Positions 4,645-48,332 of a stretch of DNA of 64,000 bases are shown here, one piece after another. The translations under genes and the position numbers were made by a program. The notes under the pieces were generated by a model. The model was not told the origin of the DNA. It saw only the letters and a program-made list of their open reading frames with translations, and searched no databases. The DNA comes from Sphyrna mokarran (lineage: Eukaryota). How positions within the stretch are numbered: position 1 is the first letter of the stretch; the number at the start of each line of letters is the position of its first letter. The stretch covers positions 53,382,001-53,446,000 of the forward strand of contig JAGIQG010000012.1 in assembly GCA_024679065.1 (NCBI GenBank), in the 5' to 3' direction.

Positions 4645-4836
4645 TGCCTGCAGCAGTTGTGGATGCGCCAAGTTTGGTGGCGTTTAAGAGGTTAGTTGAT
4701 AAGTATATGGAAGAGAAGGGAATGGTTTAGTTTGGAGGGGCATTGCTTTTTATATTGGTCGGCGCAACATCGAAGGCCGAAGGGCCTGTTCTGTGCTGTA
4801 GTGTTCTATGTTCTATGTTCTATGTTCTATGTTCTA
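4645..4836 (+). mobile_element. Young 5'-truncated CR1 LINE 3' end
   Basis: Nearly identical to the 3' end of 28014-29080; ends in (TTCTATG)n. Confidence 0.9.
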
Positions 4837-5689: not shown

Positions 5690-7165
5690 TGAGCCAGGAT
5701 TCTCCATCCTTGTTTTCAATGATTGTGGAGAATTCACAGCCCCTAAACGGCCTTTTTGTCAGCAGGGTGGCCTTTCCAATTCCTTCCCTCCCCCCACCAA
5801 TGACAAAAAGGGGTTCTCACTATGAAAGGTCGGGAATCCCATTATCATATATTTACATATAACTAACTAACTTCTCACCCCCTCCCAACACATAGAAAAC
5901 TGCTCCCCATGCTGGCGTGACATCACGGTGGCAGCATTTACAGCAGGTCCTGACAAATTGAGAACTGGCAAGGAGAATCCACCGGCAGTGCGCAAATAAG
6001 TCCATTCCCCAAGGGAGAGAAGGTCATGTTTGAGAGCTGCCCTGTCATTGCCCATGGGGCCCTTCCCTTGGAGGCTCTGTCAGTGAGCAGTGCCATGTAG
6101 CACTGCTGGGGAAGAGGGAGCTTCTGTTGGGGAGGTCCAAGTGCATTATTCCACATGTCCATGGAGAGGAGGGGGATCCTCATGCCCATAGCAGAGGTTT
6201 CCTGGTGATGTACAGGGATAGAGGTGGGGGTTCTCTCTGTCTGTGGAGGGGATGGGGCGGGGGGGGGGAGGGGGGGTGAGTACTTTTTAGGTCACACCCT
6301 AAAAAAGCTGAGGTGGCTGGCATTGCACACTCATTCGGAGTCCAACCCCCAATGTGACATCATGGGATCCAGTTCCTGAATATTTCTTAACTAAAGTGTC
6401 AAAAAACATGGTGGGAAAAACAAACAGTGGAGCTGCCATCTCAGGCACGAACCACTGTTAGGCCATTTAGGCCACGATTCTCCCGATCTGGGACTCAGTG
6501 CCCAGAGTGGAAAAACAGGAATGTTTCCCATTCGCATTGCCATCATCTGTCAGGCGAAATTCACCCACCTGAAAAATGCTTATGAGGCAATTTCGAGGAA
6601 CCTGCCAGCTAGTCCCGCTGTTCCGAGATCAGGGTATCATTTTTAAAGAGCACAATCATCACAGTCAGAGACAGGACCCCCTCCCCCAGGGGAGCACCAC
6701 CAACCCCTCACCAAAAAAGGAGCATCCTCCCTCCCCATTCACAAATAACAGGTAAACCATCTCACTACACCACGCAGGAGGGTGACCTCCACTGAGCCCT
6801 GCCTTTAGACTCCCACTCAGCCCTCTTCAGGCCACATGCCTTGGCAATGCCTACATTGCACTGCCCCCAACACCCTGCCTTTGTGTCTTGGACCCTGAAG
6901 GGAGGGATCAAGGAGACAGATCCAGTGGCCAATTGTCCCTTTGCCACTGCCAAGCTGCAGAGGAAGTCCCTCAAAGGTGCTGGGGTTAGGTGAATTCATG
7001 ATGAAGTTAAGGGGTTGTCTTCACCACACTCCTCCATGATGGGGGTCTCGTGGATGGATTCCCCTTTCTAGCCCTGACAGACCTGAAAATGGCATGATGA
7101 TTTCAGGCAGCCCAGTGATCAACATCTGCATCCCTGCCTGTCAGCCATGCAAATTTCAAAGTGGC
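5690..7165. mobile_element. GC-rich non-autonomous DNA transposon relics (probably Harbinger-derived)
   Basis: TIR-like starts GCCAGGATTCTCC (5693) and GGCCACGATTCTCCC (6469) resemble the MITE termini elsewhere in the window. Confidence 0.4.
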
Positions 7166-7166
7166 C

Positions 7167-7573
7167 ATGCCACACAACAGCGCAGAGTCGCTGAGCAGAG
7201 ACTGATAGCCAAGTTCTGCACCCATGAGGATGGCCTCAACCGGGATCTTGGGTTCATGTCACACTATCCGTAATCCCCATGACTTACCTGGACTTGCAAA
7301 ATCTCACTAACTGTCCTGTACAGAGACAATACACATTTCTTTAACCTGTGCTTAAAGCTTTCTCCACTCACATTGTTTGCACCTTTAAAACTTGATTAGC
7401 TGTAAAAGCTCGCATTCCAATCATTATTCATGTAAATTGAGTTTATGTCTTTATATGCTCTCTTTGTGTTAAGAACTCCCAATCACCTGACGAAGGAGCA
7501 GCGCTCCAAAAGCTAGTGGTGTTTGCTACCAAATAAATCTGTTGGACTTTAACCTGGTATTGATGGACTTCTT
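7167..7573 (+). mobile_element. Penelope-like element 3' end (end of GIY-YIG region plus pseudo-LTR)
   Basis: Collinear with 31830-31995 plus 33582-33851; includes the hammerhead-like motif and the AATAAATCTGTTGGACTTTAACCTGGT terminus. Confidence 0.85.
7484..7518 (+). ncRNA. Minimal hammerhead ribozyme motif, probably inactive (G12 to A)
   Basis: CAC-CTGACGA-A-GGAGC agc GCTCC-AAAA-GCTA-GTG; the GAAA core reads AAAA. Confidence 0.7.
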
Positions 7574-25839: not shown

Positions 25840-26070
25840 ATCAGGAAAGTGCTAGAGAATCTCAGCAGGCCTGACAGCAACTTGAAAGAAAGAATAGAGC
25901 CAACAGTTTGAGTCTAGATGAGCCTTCATCAGAGCTCTGACCATGGGTCATCTAGATTCAAGACATTGGCTCTGCTCTCTCCACAGATTCTATCAAACCT
26001 GCTGAGATTTTCCAGCAATTTTCTGATTTTTGTTTCAGATTCCAACATCTACAGTATTTTGCATTTATTT
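25840..26070. mobile_element. Penelope-derived inverted repeat carrying head-to-head hammerhead-like motifs
   Basis: Imperfect palindrome 25840-26027 centred on TCAGAGCTCTGA (25929-25940). Confidence 0.8.
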
Positions 26071-27316: not shown

Positions 27317-28013
27317 TTATTAAGATTTCAGATACATAGCTGAAATTCTCAACATGAATGACCAATCTACAAATCCCCATGTCAGGAATACTAACGGTAA
27401 AATTATACTCCAGATTGATTTTTAAAATCAAATTTTCCTTCTGATTTAGTCAGTGAATTTACTGTCAACGTTATTTAATTATCAAACAGCATGATTATCA
27501 CATTAGAGTATAACTTTTTTTTATCCCAGATCCATTTTATTGCCAGAATTGTATTTTTGCCCTTTTGGAATAATTTCCACTAATTCTTTATGTGCTCCAT
27601 CCACAGTGTTTGCCAAAATTCCTATTACTTTCACAATCTCATGGAATGATTTCTCAATTTATTTCTTGCCAATCTGTCTTACTCTGCACAAACCTTGGCT
27701 TATCCAAAAGTCAAGTGTGCACAAAAAGTTTATTTGATCCATGTACGCAACAAGCTGCATTGCTTTTGTTTTGCAGCTCGATCTTGCATTTGGATTTCAA
27801 ATAACTCATTCTACATTTTTGTGGTGTGTTGCCTGTGGAGCCTCAACTGGGGAGAAAAGTGCATATTGGGCCTTTCACTTCCCTGCCAATCACCAGAGGT
27901 AGATTTTAGAGAGGGTCAGAGTGGACTACGATAATGGAGGAATCACTGCTCTCCTCCTGACTTCACAGAAAGGTATTCTATTTAACAAAAAAATGAAATG
28001 AACACTTTTTATT

Positions 28014-29080
28014 AGAACATAGAACATAGAACAATACAGCACAGAACAGGCCCTTCGGCCTTCGATGTTGTGCCGACCAAAATAAAAAGCAATGCCCCTC
28101 CTAACTAAACCATTCCCTTCTCATCCATATACTTATCAACTAACCTCTTAACGCCACCAAACTTGGCGCATCTACAACAGCTGCAGGCAGGGCATTCCAC
28201 TCCCTAATCACTCTTTGAGTAAAGAACCTACCTCTGATATCCGTCCTATAACTCATACCCCTTAATTTAAAGCTGTGTCCCCTCGTGCTAGCTTTCTCCA
28301 TCCTAGGAAAAAGGCTATCACTGTCCACCCTATCTAAACCTCTAATCATCTTATATGCTTCAATAAGATCCCCTCTTAGCCGCCTCCTTTCTAACGAAAA
28401 CAACCTCAAATCCTTCAACCTCTCTTCATAGGACCTGCCCTCCATACCAGGCAACATCCTGGTAAACCTCCTCTGTACCCTCTCCAATGCCTCCACATCT
28501 TTCTTATAATGTGGGGACCAGAACTGCACACAATACTCCAAGTGCGGCCGCACTAGAGTTTTGTACAGTTGCAACATGATGCTGCGGCTCCTAAATTCAA
28601 TCCCCCTACCAATAAAAGCTAAGACTCCATATGCCTTCTTAACAACTTTATCCACTTGACTGCCTACTTTCAGGGATCTATTGACACATACACCAAGATC
28701 CTTCTGTTCCTCAACACTATTAAGAGCCCTACCATTAGCCCTATACTCTACACATTTATTGTTCCTGCCAAAGTGCATTACCTCACACTTTTCCACATTA
28801 AACTCCATTTGCCACCTCTCGGCCCAGCTCTGCAACTTGTCCAAGTCACTCTGTAAACTAAAACACCCCTCTTCACTATCTACCACACCACCAACTTTAG
28901 TATCATCTGCAAATTTACTGATCCATCCCTCAATACCCTCATCCAGATCATTTATAAAAATTACAAACAGCAGGGGCCCCAAAACAGACCCCTGAGGCAC
29001 ACCACTCGTCACCGAACTCCACAATGAATATCTCCCATCAACCACCACCCTCTGTCTTCTATCTGCCAGCCAAACAACCA
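28014..29080 (-). mobile_element. Young 5'-truncated CR1 LINE (ORF2 reverse transcriptase C-half)
   Basis: 313 aa uninterrupted frame with SGVPQGSVLGPLLF, KFADDTK, RPHLEYCVQFW and WNALP; (TTCTATG)n tail. Confidence 0.97.
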
Positions 29081-29189: not shown

Positions 29190-29865
29190 GCAGCATGGTG
29201 ACATGGTGGTTAGCACTGCTGTCTCACAATGCTAAGGACTTGAGTTCAATTCCATCCTTGGGTAGCTGTATAGGGTATGTACATTCTCCTGGTGTCTATG
29301 TAGGTTTCCTCTGAGTGCTCCGGTTTCCTTCCACATTCCAAGGATGTGGGGTTAGGTGGATTGGTACTAAATTGCCCCTTATTGTTAGAAAGATAAGGGG
29401 CACTGTGCTACCGGGTAGCACGGTAGCACAATGGTTAGCACTGCTGCTTCACAGCTCCAGGGTTTAATTCCCGGCTTGGGTCACTGTCAGTGTGGAGTTT
29501 GCACATTCTCCTTGTGTCTGCATGGTTTCCTTTGGGTGCTCTGGTTTCCTTTTACAGTCCAAAGATGTGCGGGTTAGGTTGATTGGTCATGCTAAAATTG
29601 CCCCTTAGTGTCCTGAGATGTGTAGGTTAGAGGGATTAGTAAGTAAATATGTAGGGATATGGGGGTAGGGCCTGGGTGGGATTGTGGTCAATGCAGACTC
29701 TATGGGCCCAATGGCCTTTTTCTACACTGTAGAGTTTCTATGATTCTGTGAGATGAATTTGGTTAATATGTGGGTTCGGGGAGAGGGCCTGGGTGGGATT
29801 GTTGTCAGGGCAGATTCAATGAGCCAAATGCCCTCTTTCTACACTGTATTCCATGATTCTATGAC
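29190..29865 (+). mobile_element. HE1-like SINE with a second HE1-like SINE (about 29413-29750) nested inside
   Basis: Two heads and two tails in the order head1, head2, tail2, tail1. Confidence 0.85.
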
Positions 29866-30729
29866 ATACTGAAGGAGCTTAATGCTGGTTTTATGTATTT
29901 ACCTGAACTGTATGATTTTAGCAGGGGTCTTACTGCCTAAGCTGATTGGGTAGACTATCCTACCCTTTCACATCCCAAAACATGCACAACCCATATTAAT
30001 GGTAATTTTAATATTGTATTGATTACATTTATCTAATGAGTCCCTAAGCTGCCCTCTTCCCTTTCCATTCTGTGGAGGCTGTAATTTTCAAATACATTAA
30101 AACTCCTAAATTAACTTCAGATTAAGTTTTTCATTCCTGTATTCTAGGCTGCATTTTTGGAATTACCAGGAAACTGTTCACTAACTTGGGTAGAGGACTA
30201 TGGAATAAAATCTTAATGATAATAGAAAGCTGAATGAGAAAGAACAGTCATAGAAAATAAGTTCTTATTGTACCATTGAGAAAGTCTCCATCACAGCACA
30301 AATATAAAGATGATTACTGATGCACGGTAGTGATAACTTGTGGATTATGTGATTAAATATTGGTCTACTTAACTGTAAAACTACAAGGATGGCTGATTAT
30401 TTTTGATCGTACATGTCGATTTCAAAAATATCTTATTTTGGGACAAATGCTGGTTTTATCATCAGAGATTGCAGCTTAACTTTTTCAATCTGTACCCAGC
30501 AGACTCTAAAATGCAATTATTTTTCAATACGTTGAACTGTATCACAGCTTTATGTGACATTTACAATCTCACAATGGCTTCATGGAGAGATTGCCTTGGG
30601 ATAATGTTAAAACTACTTCCAATGTTTAGCATTGTTTCTTTATCACAAAGCCTCACGACAGCGCCACACAAAAATTTAAATCTTCCTTTGCAGTTCTCTG
30701 CCCAAGGGGCCACAATTTCCATCACAGGT

Positions 30730-30844: not shown

Positions 30845-31995
30845 TTGTTGTGGCAACATACATCAATGACATTCTCTTCCTTTGGACTCATGGTGAATAA
30901 TCACTGAAGCCACTATATAATGACATCAACAAGTTCCAACCCACCATCAGACTCACCATAGACAACTCTCTGGTATTGTTGCATTCTTGGACACAAGCAT
31001 CTCCATTAAGGACAGTTACCTCAGCACCTCACTGTATTGCAAGCCCACAGATAACTTCACGATGCTCCACTTCCCCAGCTTCCACCCTAAACACATTAAG
31101 GAAGCCATCCCTTACAGACAAGCCCTCCATATACACAGGATCTGCTCAGATGAGGAAGATCATAGCAGACACTTCCAGATGCTGAAAGATGCCCTCATAA
31201 GAATAGGATATGGTGCTCGACTTATCAATCGACAGTTACGAACTGCCACAGTGAAAAACCGCACCAACCTCCTTAGAAGATAAACATGGGACATAGCAAA
31301 CAGAGTACCCTGAGTCATCCAGTACTTGCCCAGAGCGGAGAAGCTATGATATCTTCTCCAGAGCCTTCAACATGTCACTGACGAAAATGAACATATCGCC
31401 AAGGCTATTCTCACACCCCCACTTCTTGCCTTCAAACAACCATATAACCTCAAACAGACCATTGTCTGCAGCAAACTACACAGCCTTCAGAGGAACAGTG
31501 ACCACAACATTACACAACCCTGCCACAGCAACCTCTGCAAGACATGCCAGATCATCATCACAAATGCCATCATCTCATGTCAAAATACCATCCGCCAGGT
31601 TCACAGTACATATACTTGCAACTCGGCCAACATTGTCTACCTGATATGCTGAGGGAAAGGATGTTTTGAGGCATGGTGCATTGGGGAGACAATGCAGATC
31701 CTACAACAACGGATGAATGAACACTGCTCGACAATTATCAGGCAAGAGTGTTCTCTTTCTGTTGGGAAACACTTCAGCGGTCATGGGCATTCGGCCTCTG
31801 ATCTTCAGATAAGCATTCTCCAAGGTGGCCTTCACAACACATCTTAGTGCAGAGTCGCTGAGCAGAGACTGATAGTCAAATTCCACACACATGAGGACGG
31901 CCTTAAGCAGGATCTTGGGCTCATATCACACTATCTGTAACTTCAGGACTTGCTTGGGCTTGCAAAATCTTGCTAACTGTCCTGGCTGGAGACAA
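30845..31995 (+). mobile_element. Penelope-like element, decayed RT C-terminus plus GIY-YIG (left part)
   Basis: YINDILFLWTHG (YIDD motif), TSLYCKPTD...HPKHIKEAIPYRQALHIHRICS, TCNSANIVYLI...CIGET; contains stops and frameshifts. Confidence 0.92.
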
Positions 31996-33581
31996 GGTTA
32001 GTTGAAAAAGTCAAGGCTCATGGGAGACAAGAACATGTAGCTAGATGGATAAGTAATTGGCTTAGTAATAGGAGACAGAGAGTAATAGTGGAAGGGTGCT
32101 TTTCTAGCTGGAGCTCGGTCACTAGTGGTGTGCCGCAGGGCTCAGTACTGGGACCTCTTCTATTTGTAATATATATAAATGACTTGGAAGAGGGAATAAA
32201 TGGAGTGATCAGCAAGTTTGCAGACGATACAAAGATGGCTGGACTTGTGGATAGTGAGGAGCATTGTCAGGTGTTGCAGCAGGACATAAATAGGCTGGTA
32301 GCTTGGGCAGATAGATGGCAGATGGAATTCAATCCTGATAAATGCGAGATGATGCATTTCAGGAGAAAGAATGTAGGGAGGAGGTATATGATAAAAGGTA
32401 GACCTATTAAGAGTATAGAAATGCAGAGGGACCAGGAAGTGCAGGTGCACAAATCTCTGAAGGTGGCAGAGCAGGTGGAAAAGGTTGTGAAGAAAGCATG
32501 TGGTATGCTAGCCTTTACAGGAAGTGGTATGGAGTACAAGAGCTGGCCTTTAATGTTGCAGTTGTATAAAATGTTAGTTAGACCTCATTTGGAATACTGT
32601 GTCCAGTTCTAGTTGCCTTACTACCGGAAGGACGTGGAGACTCTGGAGAGAGTGCAGAGGAGGTTTACCAGGATGCTGCCTGGTATGGAAGGTCTGAGTT
32701 ACGAGGAGAGGTTAGACAAACTGGGACTGTTTTCCTTAGAAAGATGTAGACTTAGAGGAGATCTAATAGAGGTGTACAAGATTATGAAGGGTATAGATAG
32801 AGTAAACAGGGTTAAGCTTTTTCCTAGGATGGATTCCAATAGCACGAGGGGTCATAGGCTTAGGGTGAGGGGTGTAAGGTTTAATTTGGGTGCTAGAGGG
32901 AGTTTTTTCACACAGAGGATGGTGGGGGTATGGAATGCGCTGCCAAGTAAAGTGGCAGGCACTCTGGAGTTATTTAAGAAATACTTAGATAGGCACATGA
33001 ACAGAATGGGAATGAAGGGGTATAGAAAACTGATTTAAAATAGGGATCATGAGCCTTGGGAGTCCCTGAGAAGTGTGTAAATAGATGATGATATTGATGT
33101 ATTTGTTTTTATCCTACAGGTGCTTTGGTCTGCCTTGTTGTCTAACAAGGGGCATACACGTGATGGGTTGTGAGAAGGCTGCTCTTGGATTTTGAAAGTA
33201 TCCTAGTGCTTCACGTCGTTAGTGTATGCTTGACCTGGACCATTTGATGGGCAACACGACAGCTCAGTGACTATCGCTGTGCTGTGCAGATACATGGATT
33301 TGGGCCTGTGTCTGTGGGAGTTTGCGCATTCTCCCCGTGCTTGCGTGGGTTTTCTTCGGGTGCTCTGGTTTCCTCCCACATCCCAAAGATGTGCTCTTAG
33401 GCTAATTGGCAAAACAAATTCTCCCTAAATTGTCTCAAATTTGGTTTTTAATCCATAGATCTATAAACATAGACAGGGATCGCGGGTAGAGGTGGGAATA
33501 TCGGGGTGGCGGTGCGGGCTCATTGGGCTGAAGGGCCTGTTTCCCGTGCTGTTTTGTTCTTTGTTCTTTTTGTTCTTTTTT
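31996..33581 (+). mobile_element. 5'-truncated CR1 LINE with long SINE-containing 3' UTR, inserted into the Penelope element
   Basis: RT motifs SGVPQGSVLGP and FADDTK; one in-frame TAG at 32610; stop at 33036-33038; (TTCTTTG)n tail; Penelope sequence resumes at 33582. Confidence 0.93.
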
Positions 33582-33851
33582 AATACACATCTCTTTAATC
33601 TGTCTTAACCCTTTCTCCACTCACATTGTCTGTACCTTTAATACTTGATTCCTCTAAAGAGTCACATTCCAACCATTATTTTGTAAGTAATGATTGAAAT
33701 GATGATGGAATAACGATGGCATTATATGCTCTGTTTGTGAACTGAAATCCCATTCACCTGATGAAGGAGGAGCGAGCACTCCGAAAGCTAGTGGGTTTTG
33801 CTATCAAATAAACCTGTTGGACTCTAACCTGGTGTAATGAGATCTCTTACT
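33582..33851 (+). mobile_element. Penelope pseudo-LTR (right part of the 30845 element)
   Basis: Collinear with 7328-7573. Confidence 0.88.
33755..33793 (+). ncRNA. Minimal type I hammerhead ribozyme, core intact
   Basis: CAC-CTGATGA-A-GGAG(9 nt)CTCC-GAAA-GC-TA-GTG; predicted cleavage 3' of 33790. Confidence 0.8.
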
Positions 33852-33966
33852 GAATATACACTTCAACAATGCCGTCTGGAACTATGAATACCGATGGTAA
33901 AGGCTCCAGTTTCCTTTGCATCACAGAGCAGTAATCTCTCCTGCTCTTACCACCTAGCCATTGGGG

Positions 33967-36341: not shown

Positions 36342-36479
36342 AGTAAATGCCAATAGCTTTCTGGGTTTGCTCTCACCTGATGAAAGGGCAAAACCTGAAA
36401 GCTAGTGGTGTTTGCTACCAAATAAACCTGTTGGACTTTAACCTGGTGTTGTGAGACTTCTTACTGTGTTTACCCCACA
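36342..36479 (+). mobile_element. Solo Penelope pseudo-LTR unit with hammerhead motif (36374-36407)
   Basis: CAC-CTGATGA-A-AGG gcaaaa CCT-GAAA-GCTA-GTG followed by the family terminus; interrupts the CR1. Confidence 0.8.
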
Positions 36480-40427: not shown

Positions 40428-41070
40428 TAATCACAGAGTCCTTACGGTGGAGAAGGAGGCCATTCAACCCATCAAGTCTGCACCCAGGCCTTATTCCCAT
40501 AATCCCACCTATTCACCCTGCTAATCTCCTTTACACTAGGGTTAATTTAGCATTACCGATCAAACTAACACACACATCTTTGAACTGTGGGAAGGAAAAG
40601 CACACAGACACAGGAGAATCATAGAAACCATAGAAATCCTACAGTGCAGAAAGAGGCCATTGGGCCCATCGTGTCTGCAGCAACCACAATCTCACCCAGG
40701 TCCTACCCCCACATCCTTACACATTTGCTCACTAATCCTTCTAACCTACGCATCTCAGGATACTAAGGGGCAACTTTAGTATGGCCAATCAATCTAACCA
40801 GCATATCTTTGGACTGTGGGAGGAAACCGGCGCACCCAGAGAAAACCCACACAGACACAAGGAGAATGTGCAAATTCCACGCATACAGCAACCCAAGCTG
40901 GGAATCGAACCCAAGTCCCTGGAGCTCTGAAGCAGCAGTACAACCACTGTTCCACCGTGCCACCCCTAAATGTGCAAACTCCACATAGACAGTGACTTGA
41001 GGCCTGAAGTGAATCTGAGTCCCTAATGCTATGAGGTAGCAGTACTAATCACTGTGCCACCGTGCCATCC
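40428..41070 (-). mobile_element. HE1-like SINE with a second HE1-like SINE (about 40617-40966) nested inside
   Basis: The outer element is split at GGAGAAT / AATGTGCAAACT. Confidence 0.85.
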
Positions 41071-41166: not shown

Positions 41167-41492
41167 ATTTGATGGGCAACACGACAGCTCAGTGACTATC
41201 GCTGTGCTGTGCAGATACATGGATTTGGGTCTGTGTCTGTGGGAGTTTGCGCAATCTCCCTGTGCTTGTGTGGGTTTTCTCTGGGTGCTCCGGTTTCCTC
41301 CCTCGCCCCAAAGGTGTGCTCTTAGGCTGATTGGCAGAACAAATTCTCCCTAAATTGTCACAAATTTGGTTCCAATGCATAGATCTATAAATATAGACAG
41401 GATCATGGGTAGAAGCAGGAACATCGAGGTGGCGGCGCAGGCTTGTTGGGCCGAAGGGCTTGTTTCCTGTGCTGTTTTGTTCTTTGTTCTTT
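41167..41492 (+). mobile_element. Copy of the SINE-derived CR1 3' UTR seen at 33242-33581
   Basis: Shares the decayed head GGGCAACACGACAGCTCAGTGACTATCGCTGTGCTGTGCAGATACATGG and the (TTCTTTG)n tail. Confidence 0.9.
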
Positions 41493-42089: not shown

Positions 42090-42197
42090 CAAAGAACAAA
42101 CAAAGAAGAAAGAACAAAACAGCACAGGAAACAGGCCCTTCGGCCCAACAAGCCCATGCCACCACCTCGATGTTCCCACTTCTGCCCACGATCCCGG
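42090..42197 (-). mobile_element. Short 3' tail of the same family as 41167-41492
   Basis: AAAACAGCACAGGAAACAGGCCCTTCGGCCCAACAAGCC. Confidence 0.85.
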
Positions 42198-42298
42198 TCT
42201 CCTGACAGTTGGGTCCATTCATTGGGTCTGCAAAAGAAAAGGTGAAACCAGTCAACTCCTTTAGAGAAACCACAGCTGTCAATCAGGCTTAGAGTCTA

Positions 42299-47710: not shown

Positions 47711-48234
47711 CCTCAGGAGAAGGGGTGTCTTTTCAATGTTTCTGTTCAACTCCTGTGGTTGCTGATCCCTTTAAACAGAAATCTTTCCTTTGACAAATAC
47801 AGTGTGATATTCTGCCTGCCCTCTCCAATTAGCCAAGAATCTAAGAAGCAGGAGGTGAATGCCTTGGCTGCCATAAAGAACCAGTCAAAGCATGCTACTC
47901 TATCAAATTGGTTCATGAGCCCCTACCAGCCTCCCTTCTATGTGTGAATTGTTCTATCAAGATCTTGCTCTGTATGTTCAGTGGCTGTGCTTCACCATAA
48001 TGATGCCATGTTCAGCATCATCCCTTGGAATTGGACCTGCCGCCTCACTGTAGCGTGAAGGCAGTGCTGCCAGTGAATGTAATCCTGAATTTTTCATCAG
48101 CAAATACTTCAAGTTGAAACATCTCATCATCCATCACTATATCTGACAGTAACTGAAATTCTGTACGCTAGGGGAGGAGGCTTCTTGATTATCTCCTTTC
48201 TAAACAGGAGGAGCAGTCATGTAGCTTTTCCAGA

Positions 48235-48332
48235 GTAAGAAGTCTCACAACACCAGGTTAAAGTCCAACAGGTTTATTTGGTAGCAAAAGCCACTAACTT
48301 TCGGAACACAAGCTGCCCCTTCATCATGTGAG
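48235..48332 (-). mobile_element. Solo Penelope pseudo-LTR unit with degenerate hammerhead (48292-48330)
   Basis: Minus strand CAC-ATGATGA-A-GGGGCA gcttg TGTTCC-GAAA-GTTA-GTG; TCCAGA flanks both sides (48229 and 48333). Confidence 0.8.

Follow-up and report, generated by a model that had tools for sequence, protein, structure and literature searches.

Many tRNA-headed SINEs that have a common central domain lie in the window, the 64,000-nt stretch of the Sphyrna mokarran genome (2.77 Gb) that was analysed here, and one of them appears in an unusual place, downstream of the ORF2 of a CR1 LINE. The question raised by this locus is whether the decayed SINE lies beside the LINE by chance, became its 3′-end, or was taken up into its 3′ UTR and retained there. 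The reading favored here, as fairly probable on the sequence comparisons below, is that in an abundant CR1 a promoter-dead V-SINE head and V domain entered the UTR once, before the LINE's own tail, and was selected as a cis module that aids copying of the LINE RNA. Other repeats of the window include an imperfect, MITE-like palindrome of 190 nt with 74% arms at 25840–26027, and V-SINEs at 29405–29867 and 40431–41070 in which the 3′ half is duplicated and the heads are stacked.

Anatomy of the Insertion in the Window

The element starts within a 5′-truncated ORF2 of a CR1 family designated A (31996..33038, plus strand), which covers the reverse transcriptase and the C-terminal region (RVT_1, E 1.7e-16) and carries an in-frame stop at 32610–32612, so the window copy is dead. 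As the preliminary description had reported, neither a stem-loop nor a microsatellite follows the ORF2 stop (33038) in the window sequence. A freely evolving start of the 3′ UTR, recognized by comparing family lengths (33039..33099, plus), leads to a pyrimidine tract with CAG that resembles a splice acceptor and is aligned among families A–D (33100..33119, plus); the distance from the ORF2 stop to this site is 81 nt in A, 168 nt in C, 20 nt in B and 21 nt in D. Then follows a conserved linker with a predicted three-way RNA fold (33120..33248, plus; fold z −2.3 for the window copy). The ∼200-nt stretch after the stop that had been called unique proved to be a high-copy, conserved part of the element.

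A tRNA-type V-SINE head remnant occupies 33249..33308 (plus), where the eroded A box (33260–33270) and the absence of the B box claimed earlier were both found, the B-box region being deleted near 33297 by 18 nt relative to family C. Homology of the UTR head with intact V-SINE heads was supported by shuffling, as shuffles aligned equally well in 20 of 10,000 trials for family A and 4 of 10,000 for family B. The V domain and an adjoining conserved stretch (33309..33427, plus) align with 79–81% identity to the central domain of the window's intact V-SINEs, which were used for this comparison instead of the published V consensus; the intact V-SINEs of this genome are presumably of the HE1 type of sharks and rays. 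A free spacer (33428..33507, plus), 80 nt long in A, 75 nt in B, 135 nt in C and 34 nt in D, and identical at just 23 of 70 positions between A and B, separates the V domain from a CR1 tail (33508..33581, plus) that tail alignments assign to the type of a sister family, S. The tail has a stem-loop around 33525–33556 and a (TTCTTTG)n microsatellite running to 33581, and so both signals stand at the far end of the element only, in agreement with the preliminary description.

Both parts of the interrupted host repeat (30924..31995 and 33582..33852, both plus) were recognized by alignment to other host copies. Over 31821–31995 and 33582–33833, the flanks follow an unsplit copy of the host repeat (7157–7558) collinearly, and the junction implies a 2-bp (AA) target duplication, which bears out the clean split noticed before. 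By its motifs the host repeat may be Penelope-like; a Pfam scan of its two broken pieces gave no match, whether to the RT or to the GIY-YIG endonuclease of Penelope elements. Further pieces of this repeat lie at 7157–7573, 36373–36468 and 48231–48331. The block recurs, as had also been noticed, at 41167..41492 (plus, 90%), truncated 7 nt upstream of the head, and at 42091..42200 (minus, 85%), with the spacer end and tail only, both being further family A copies. Altogether, there is very little doubt that the element is a truncated CR1 copy with a V-SINE head and V domain in its 3′ UTR.

Block-Carrying CR1 Families and a Short-Tailed Sister Family

Three further families with the same UTR plan, B, C and D, were recovered from unselected DNA and flanks. 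Their 3′ UTRs are 466, 700 and 431 nt long, respectively, and that of family A is 545 nt, compared with about 70 nt in the short-tailed family S. Family B is young (1.3% from its majority), and near-full-length copies of B and D carry ORF2 and an esterase-like ORF1 that scores under the Pfam cut-off (Lipase_GDSL_2, E 1.1e-4, in the family D copy L299). No full-length copy of family A was found, the longest reaching ∼3.1 kb above the head. Family C is older, and among its 29 loci of 30 that could be oriented, 14 reach well into ORF2 and 15 are truncated at scattered points. In 18 of 30 young family B copies (L161–L190) the end is an A run, unusual for a CR1, and the rest end in varied short repeats. 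In two loci (L170 and L334) the linker agrees poorly with each of the four majorities, and more subfamilies probably exist beyond A–D. A coding role for the SINE block was rejected, as its reading frames differ between families.

Assignment to CR1 rests on a 3′ stem-loop with microsatellite, scattered 5′ truncation, a short or absent target duplication, and the nesting of ORF2 among the short-tailed CR1-type elements of the genome in a tree that holds no named reference CR1. The tree comprised about 530 columns of ORF2 ends in 69 rows and was midpoint-rooted; five long-branch rows and poorly covered or unclassified singletons were left out, 6 of 30 S copies were used, and two rows were labelled by cluster, one of them without a UTR check. 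All block-carrying rows formed one clade (99/96, by branch support and not by a formal one-clade test) with C basal, and family S was its sister (100/100) among 41 other short-tailed rows. None of the 30 S loci carries the linker, a count that establishes the existence of the family and not its abundance, because the query included the short tail. At four-fold sites, family C is identical to S in 93 of 108 cases. A single origin of the block in this LINE lineage is likely from these alignments and the tree. A different CR1 family, which is 69% identical to the ORF2 described here and ends in the usual short tail, is present in the window at 28013–29062 (minus) and 4645–4831.

The internal promoter is damaged: the A box is eroded, and the B-box region, degenerate but alignable without gaps to an intact head in family C, shows a common 18-nt deletion in A, B and D. 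Family C thus bridges to the intact head, which establishes that the direction was from SINE to LINE and that promoter decay came first and the deletion later.

Origin of the Block and of the Tail

The preliminary description proposed that the SINE had become the 3′-end of the LINE. This part was not supported in the form given, as the stem-loop and microsatellite at the end of the element resemble those of S more closely than those of the V-SINE tail: in family C, tail identity is 50/56 to S vs. 35/54 to the V-SINE tail of this genome (p 0.002), and the LINE tail agrees with the local V-SINE tail at 35–36 of 53–54 positions. Further, in family C the stop codon is succeeded by the opening nucleotides of the S UTR, the remainder of the S UTR begins the tail, and a 9-nt S-UTR piece stands directly before the head, with a chance of 4e-5 at that boundary and 0.002 anywhere in the insert. 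In C, S-UTR sequence thus borders the SINE block at either end, which is most simply explained by insertion within the UTR of the LINE itself. On this alignment evidence, it is quite likely that the SINE piece was inserted upstream of the tail that the LINE already had and did not become a new 3′-end, and insertion within the UTR probably happened twice.

The alternative proposed earlier, that a whole V-SINE with a borrowed S-type tail landed in the UTR and that its tail became the priming end, is the rival that survives best, although we consider it rather unlikely. SINEs borrow LINE tails, according to the available text of PMC3747384, so an S partner SINE would share the tail, and a partner with an S-derived tail would leave nearly the same picture. 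A plain insertion should also have left a second tail, and no SINE-type tail was found in the spacer of C (646 of 2000 shuffles equally good), nor did an old tail remnant stand out from shuffles in its linker or spacer. Against this capture, besides the S-UTR letters on both sides of the block, stands that no possible donor appeared among the V copies surveyed: of 486 distinct V copies, 100 have both boxes intact, and none of these ends in an S-type tail, 43 having the V-SINE type and 57 an unrecognized one, so this donor census is weak.

Of 30 loci with the C spacer, only one (L411, minus strand) has an intact head. It begins as a V-SINE with an intact head, continues from a point within the V domain as family C with the C spacer and tail, and lies itself within another V-SINE. 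Its layout is exactly that expected from capture of a whole SINE, but the switch from V-SINE to C type occurs within the V domain. Most simply, L411 is a recombinant, and it could be a relic of the donor; either way, such a layout represents a route by which a new SINE with a new tail may arise.

Conservation of the Head, V Domain and Tail

Sequence conservation within the UTR was measured among the families of this one genome. In the five distant family pairs, where four-fold sites are 60–67% identical, the head is 90–98%, the V domain 90–94%, the tail 91–98% and the linker 74–89% identical; over all pairs of families A–D the V domain is 90–97% identical, and its excess over four-fold sites in the distant pairs is significant at p of at most 7e-6. 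In detail, A and B agree at 63/101 four-fold sites, 38/41 head positions and 93/102 V positions, and A and C at 66/98, 40/41 and 95/103, respectively. Free UTR sites of A and C agree at 110/140, a value inflated by liberal gaps, and are still exceeded by the head (p 0.002) and the V domain (p 0.003). Compared with four-fold sites or free UTR, the rate of change in head, V domain and tail is hence 3–17 times lower, while the stretches that precede the acceptor-like site and follow the V domain vary four- to eight-fold in length. In the close pair B–D, only the V domain (p 0.03) and tail (p 0.01) were above four-fold sites, with no excess for the head (p 0.4) or the linker (82% vs. 90% at four-fold sites).

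Selection is indicated by the 90–98% identity of head and V domain where four-fold sites retain 60–67%, and we hold with considerable confidence that these two pieces would have been kept by it. Neither of them folds better than shuffles (z −1.9 to 0.05 for the head, and −0.9 to −0.2 for the V domain), so that a DNA-level or protein-binding role fits as well.

It is improbable that the block is instead a neutral passenger whose identity was maintained by exchange, through recombination or conversion, with V-SINEs or between the families. One model for such domains, given in the available part of PMC5499810, sees them as recombination hot spots, and the crossover of L411 falls inside the V domain. 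By contrast, the informative UTR sites, 13 for AC|BD and none for AB|CD or AD|BC, agree with the ORF2 tree, and eight V-domain columns common to A–D differ from the V-SINE majority, hence swapping or conversion is disfavored as the cause. Moreover, conservation is as high in the head, a part diverged from intact V-SINE heads, as in the V domain, and deletions that took both flanks and the B box spared head and V domain.

Predicted Linker Fold and Splice-Like Sites

The family majorities of the linker gave fold z values of −3.4, −4.0, −1.8 and −4.4 for A–D, respectively. In the four-family alignment from the acceptor-like site to the end of the V domain, 5 predicted pairs have two-sided changes, 14 have one-sided changes and 16 are broken somewhere, so covariation lends modest support to the predicted three-way junction. 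A search of the linker against Rfam returned only a chance match for the window (E 8.4) and none for the family C locus L232.

The pyrimidine tract and CAG stand just before the linker in all four families, through separate deletions, and a donor-like GT site occurs 50–70 nt before the ORF1 start in B and D (L286:3234–3240, and L299), present in 23 of 30 family B leaders. The retention of the one and the matching position of the other would suit splicing from a 5′ UTR donor to the acceptor after ORF2, yielding a non-coding leader–linker–head–V–tail RNA without both ORFs, although the donor sites were compared among leaders of block-carrying families only. This is improbable, as none of the 30 B leaders is joined to the 3′ block, the B/D junction motif has no genome match with one mismatch allowed, and no recurring upstream partner was seen in 30 examined of the 179 acceptor-less family A starts; that is, spliced retrocopies were found neither among the B leaders nor by the junction search nor among the sampled A starts. 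Many acceptor-less family A starts end in AG, which short microhomology explains equally well. In L329, the ORF2 of another CR1 is joined at a donor-like position to the family A acceptor-like site, by splicing or by microhomology.

Copy Number and Linkage of the Block to ORF2

A 29-mer of the head has 15,699 exact genome matches (reversed control, 0), and the copy number of the head was estimated as roughly 28,000, from 6 heads per 600 kb of unselected DNA, to 56,000. The linker search gave 3,058 candidates, and in all 30 fetched loci, the window's own copy included, ORF2 is followed by the linker, the block and the tail. Similarly, when anchored at the ORF2 end, 30 of 30 loci continue into linker and head and none ends in the ordinary short tail, and all family B (30/30) and family D (25/25) loci reach ORF2.

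Among head-anchored loci, 58 of 60 extend upstream. After removal of the query copy and three duplicates, only one of 56 begins within 33230–33260, that is, at the head, without any pile-up of starts there, and 12 of 56 reach the 5′ limit of the window copy (31996). Because 30 of 30 ORF2-anchored copies carry the block and the starts do not cluster at the head, the block is no independent SINE. An independent SINE subfamily lying beside CR1 fragments by chance has next to no probability, for although the 41167 copy and L050 begin near the head, the start rate there (0.0006 per nt) is inside that of the other bins (0.0003–0.0027), the B box is deleted, and of the 10 3′-ends of family type that 600 kb of unselected DNA contained, none begins at the head; barring a rare subfamily, it is refuted by these counts.

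The caveat attached earlier to the 41167 copy is thus answered by ordinary truncation, and the two central claims of the preliminary description stand: a LINE carries SINE-derived sequence, as the complete linkage and the dispersed truncations demonstrate, and the block was amplified after the death of its Pol III promoter, being copied with the A box eroded and the B box deleted. Consequently, what look like V-SINE fragments in this genome are, in tens of thousands of cases, the ends of LINEs. The pairs L068/L069 and L077/L078 (C1, near 0.81 and 1.64 Mb) show the same pair of copies in opposite orientation, which suggests a segmental duplication. In a sequencing-run search, 20 of 22 listed runs, from several organisms, hold 7–48% of the sampled words, which says nothing on expression or range.

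Discussion

The history most consistent with these data starts from a short-tailed CR1 like family S, the sister of the four block-carrying families. An S-type UTR would have gained about 620 nt, probably through two insertions: the SINE head, V domain and spacer came with one, and the acceptor-like site and folded linker with the other. The B box then degenerated, as seen in C, and was lost by deletion in A, B and D. The degraded B box and the scattered 5′ truncation of copies show that the block travels on the LINE's own transcript, and priming takes place at the CR1 tail region at its end, as for other 5′-truncated copies. Given their slow evolution relative to four-fold sites and free UTR, head and V domain may act in the RNA, in 3′-end stability or in assembly of the ORF2p–RNA particle, without Pol III, and it is likely that the V-SINE core is of use to its carrier RNA. 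The wider proposition, that a CR1 lineage domesticated its parasite's head and V domain as a Pol III-independent cis element, retained by four successive families, of which one is young, while deletions recurred in its neighborhood, is evenly balanced on present comparisons.

SINE central domains such as V are conserved for hundreds of millions of years, and the reason is stated as open in the available texts of PMC4824008, PMC5499810 and PMC6887750. In SINEs, the V domain always comes together with Pol III transcription and dependence on a partner, from which it is inseparable, while here it stands promoterless in a self-sufficient LINE. The series of no insert (S), degenerate B box (C) and deleted B box (A, B and D) makes the question directly testable. 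If the present reading is true, the V domain has stayed conserved because it serves the retrotransposing RNA, and the short-tailed family S is a natural control.

Canonical vertebrate CR1 elements have an esterase-type ORF1, an endonuclease–RT ORF2, a tail of stem-loop and microsatellite, and frequent 5′ truncation (PMC13343379, available text). The block-carrying families follow this plan, with an ORF1 that is putatively of the esterase type, but have 3′ UTRs of 431–700 nt with a SINE module, and family B often ends in an A run; no such UTR is mentioned in the available text of that 2026 survey. Stringent LINEs require their 3′ stem-loop, and the HE1 V-SINE of sharks and rays has the CR1-type LINE HER1 as partner (PMC3747384, available text). 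HE1/HER1 resembles the present element in its tRNA-type head, V domain and CR1-type tail. However, HE1 is a separate, Pol III-driven SINE that shares only the tail with HER1, whereas here head and V domain lie inside the 3′ UTR of an autonomous LINE. Exchange of modules is also known from SINE bodies derived from the 5′ UTRs of RTE and Vingi LINEs, with the flow from LINE to SINE, the reverse of the flow that the block-carrying families demonstrate; a LINE whose 3′ UTR carries a SINE head and conserved domain is not named in the available part of that source (PMC5786205). As far as its text was available, the literature yielded no account of a V-SINE inside the 3′ UTR of a CR1, and Repbase or Dfam may hold such a consensus.

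The nearest precedent for a V-SINE inside another mobile element, by the available account in PMC6887750, is MER6/MER6A, a Tc1/Mariner MITE with a nearly full-length Ac1-like V-SINE. As in the present case, a V-SINE within another mobile element spreads there without its own machinery. In contrast, MER6 is non-autonomous, long extinct and copied as DNA, while the element described here is an autonomous, RNA-copied LINE with young copies, for which, unlike MER6, a sister family without the insert exists and constraint is measurable. The present element belongs to the chimeric retroelements, a known kind, and comes with a no-insert sister family, an intermediate and a measured constraint.
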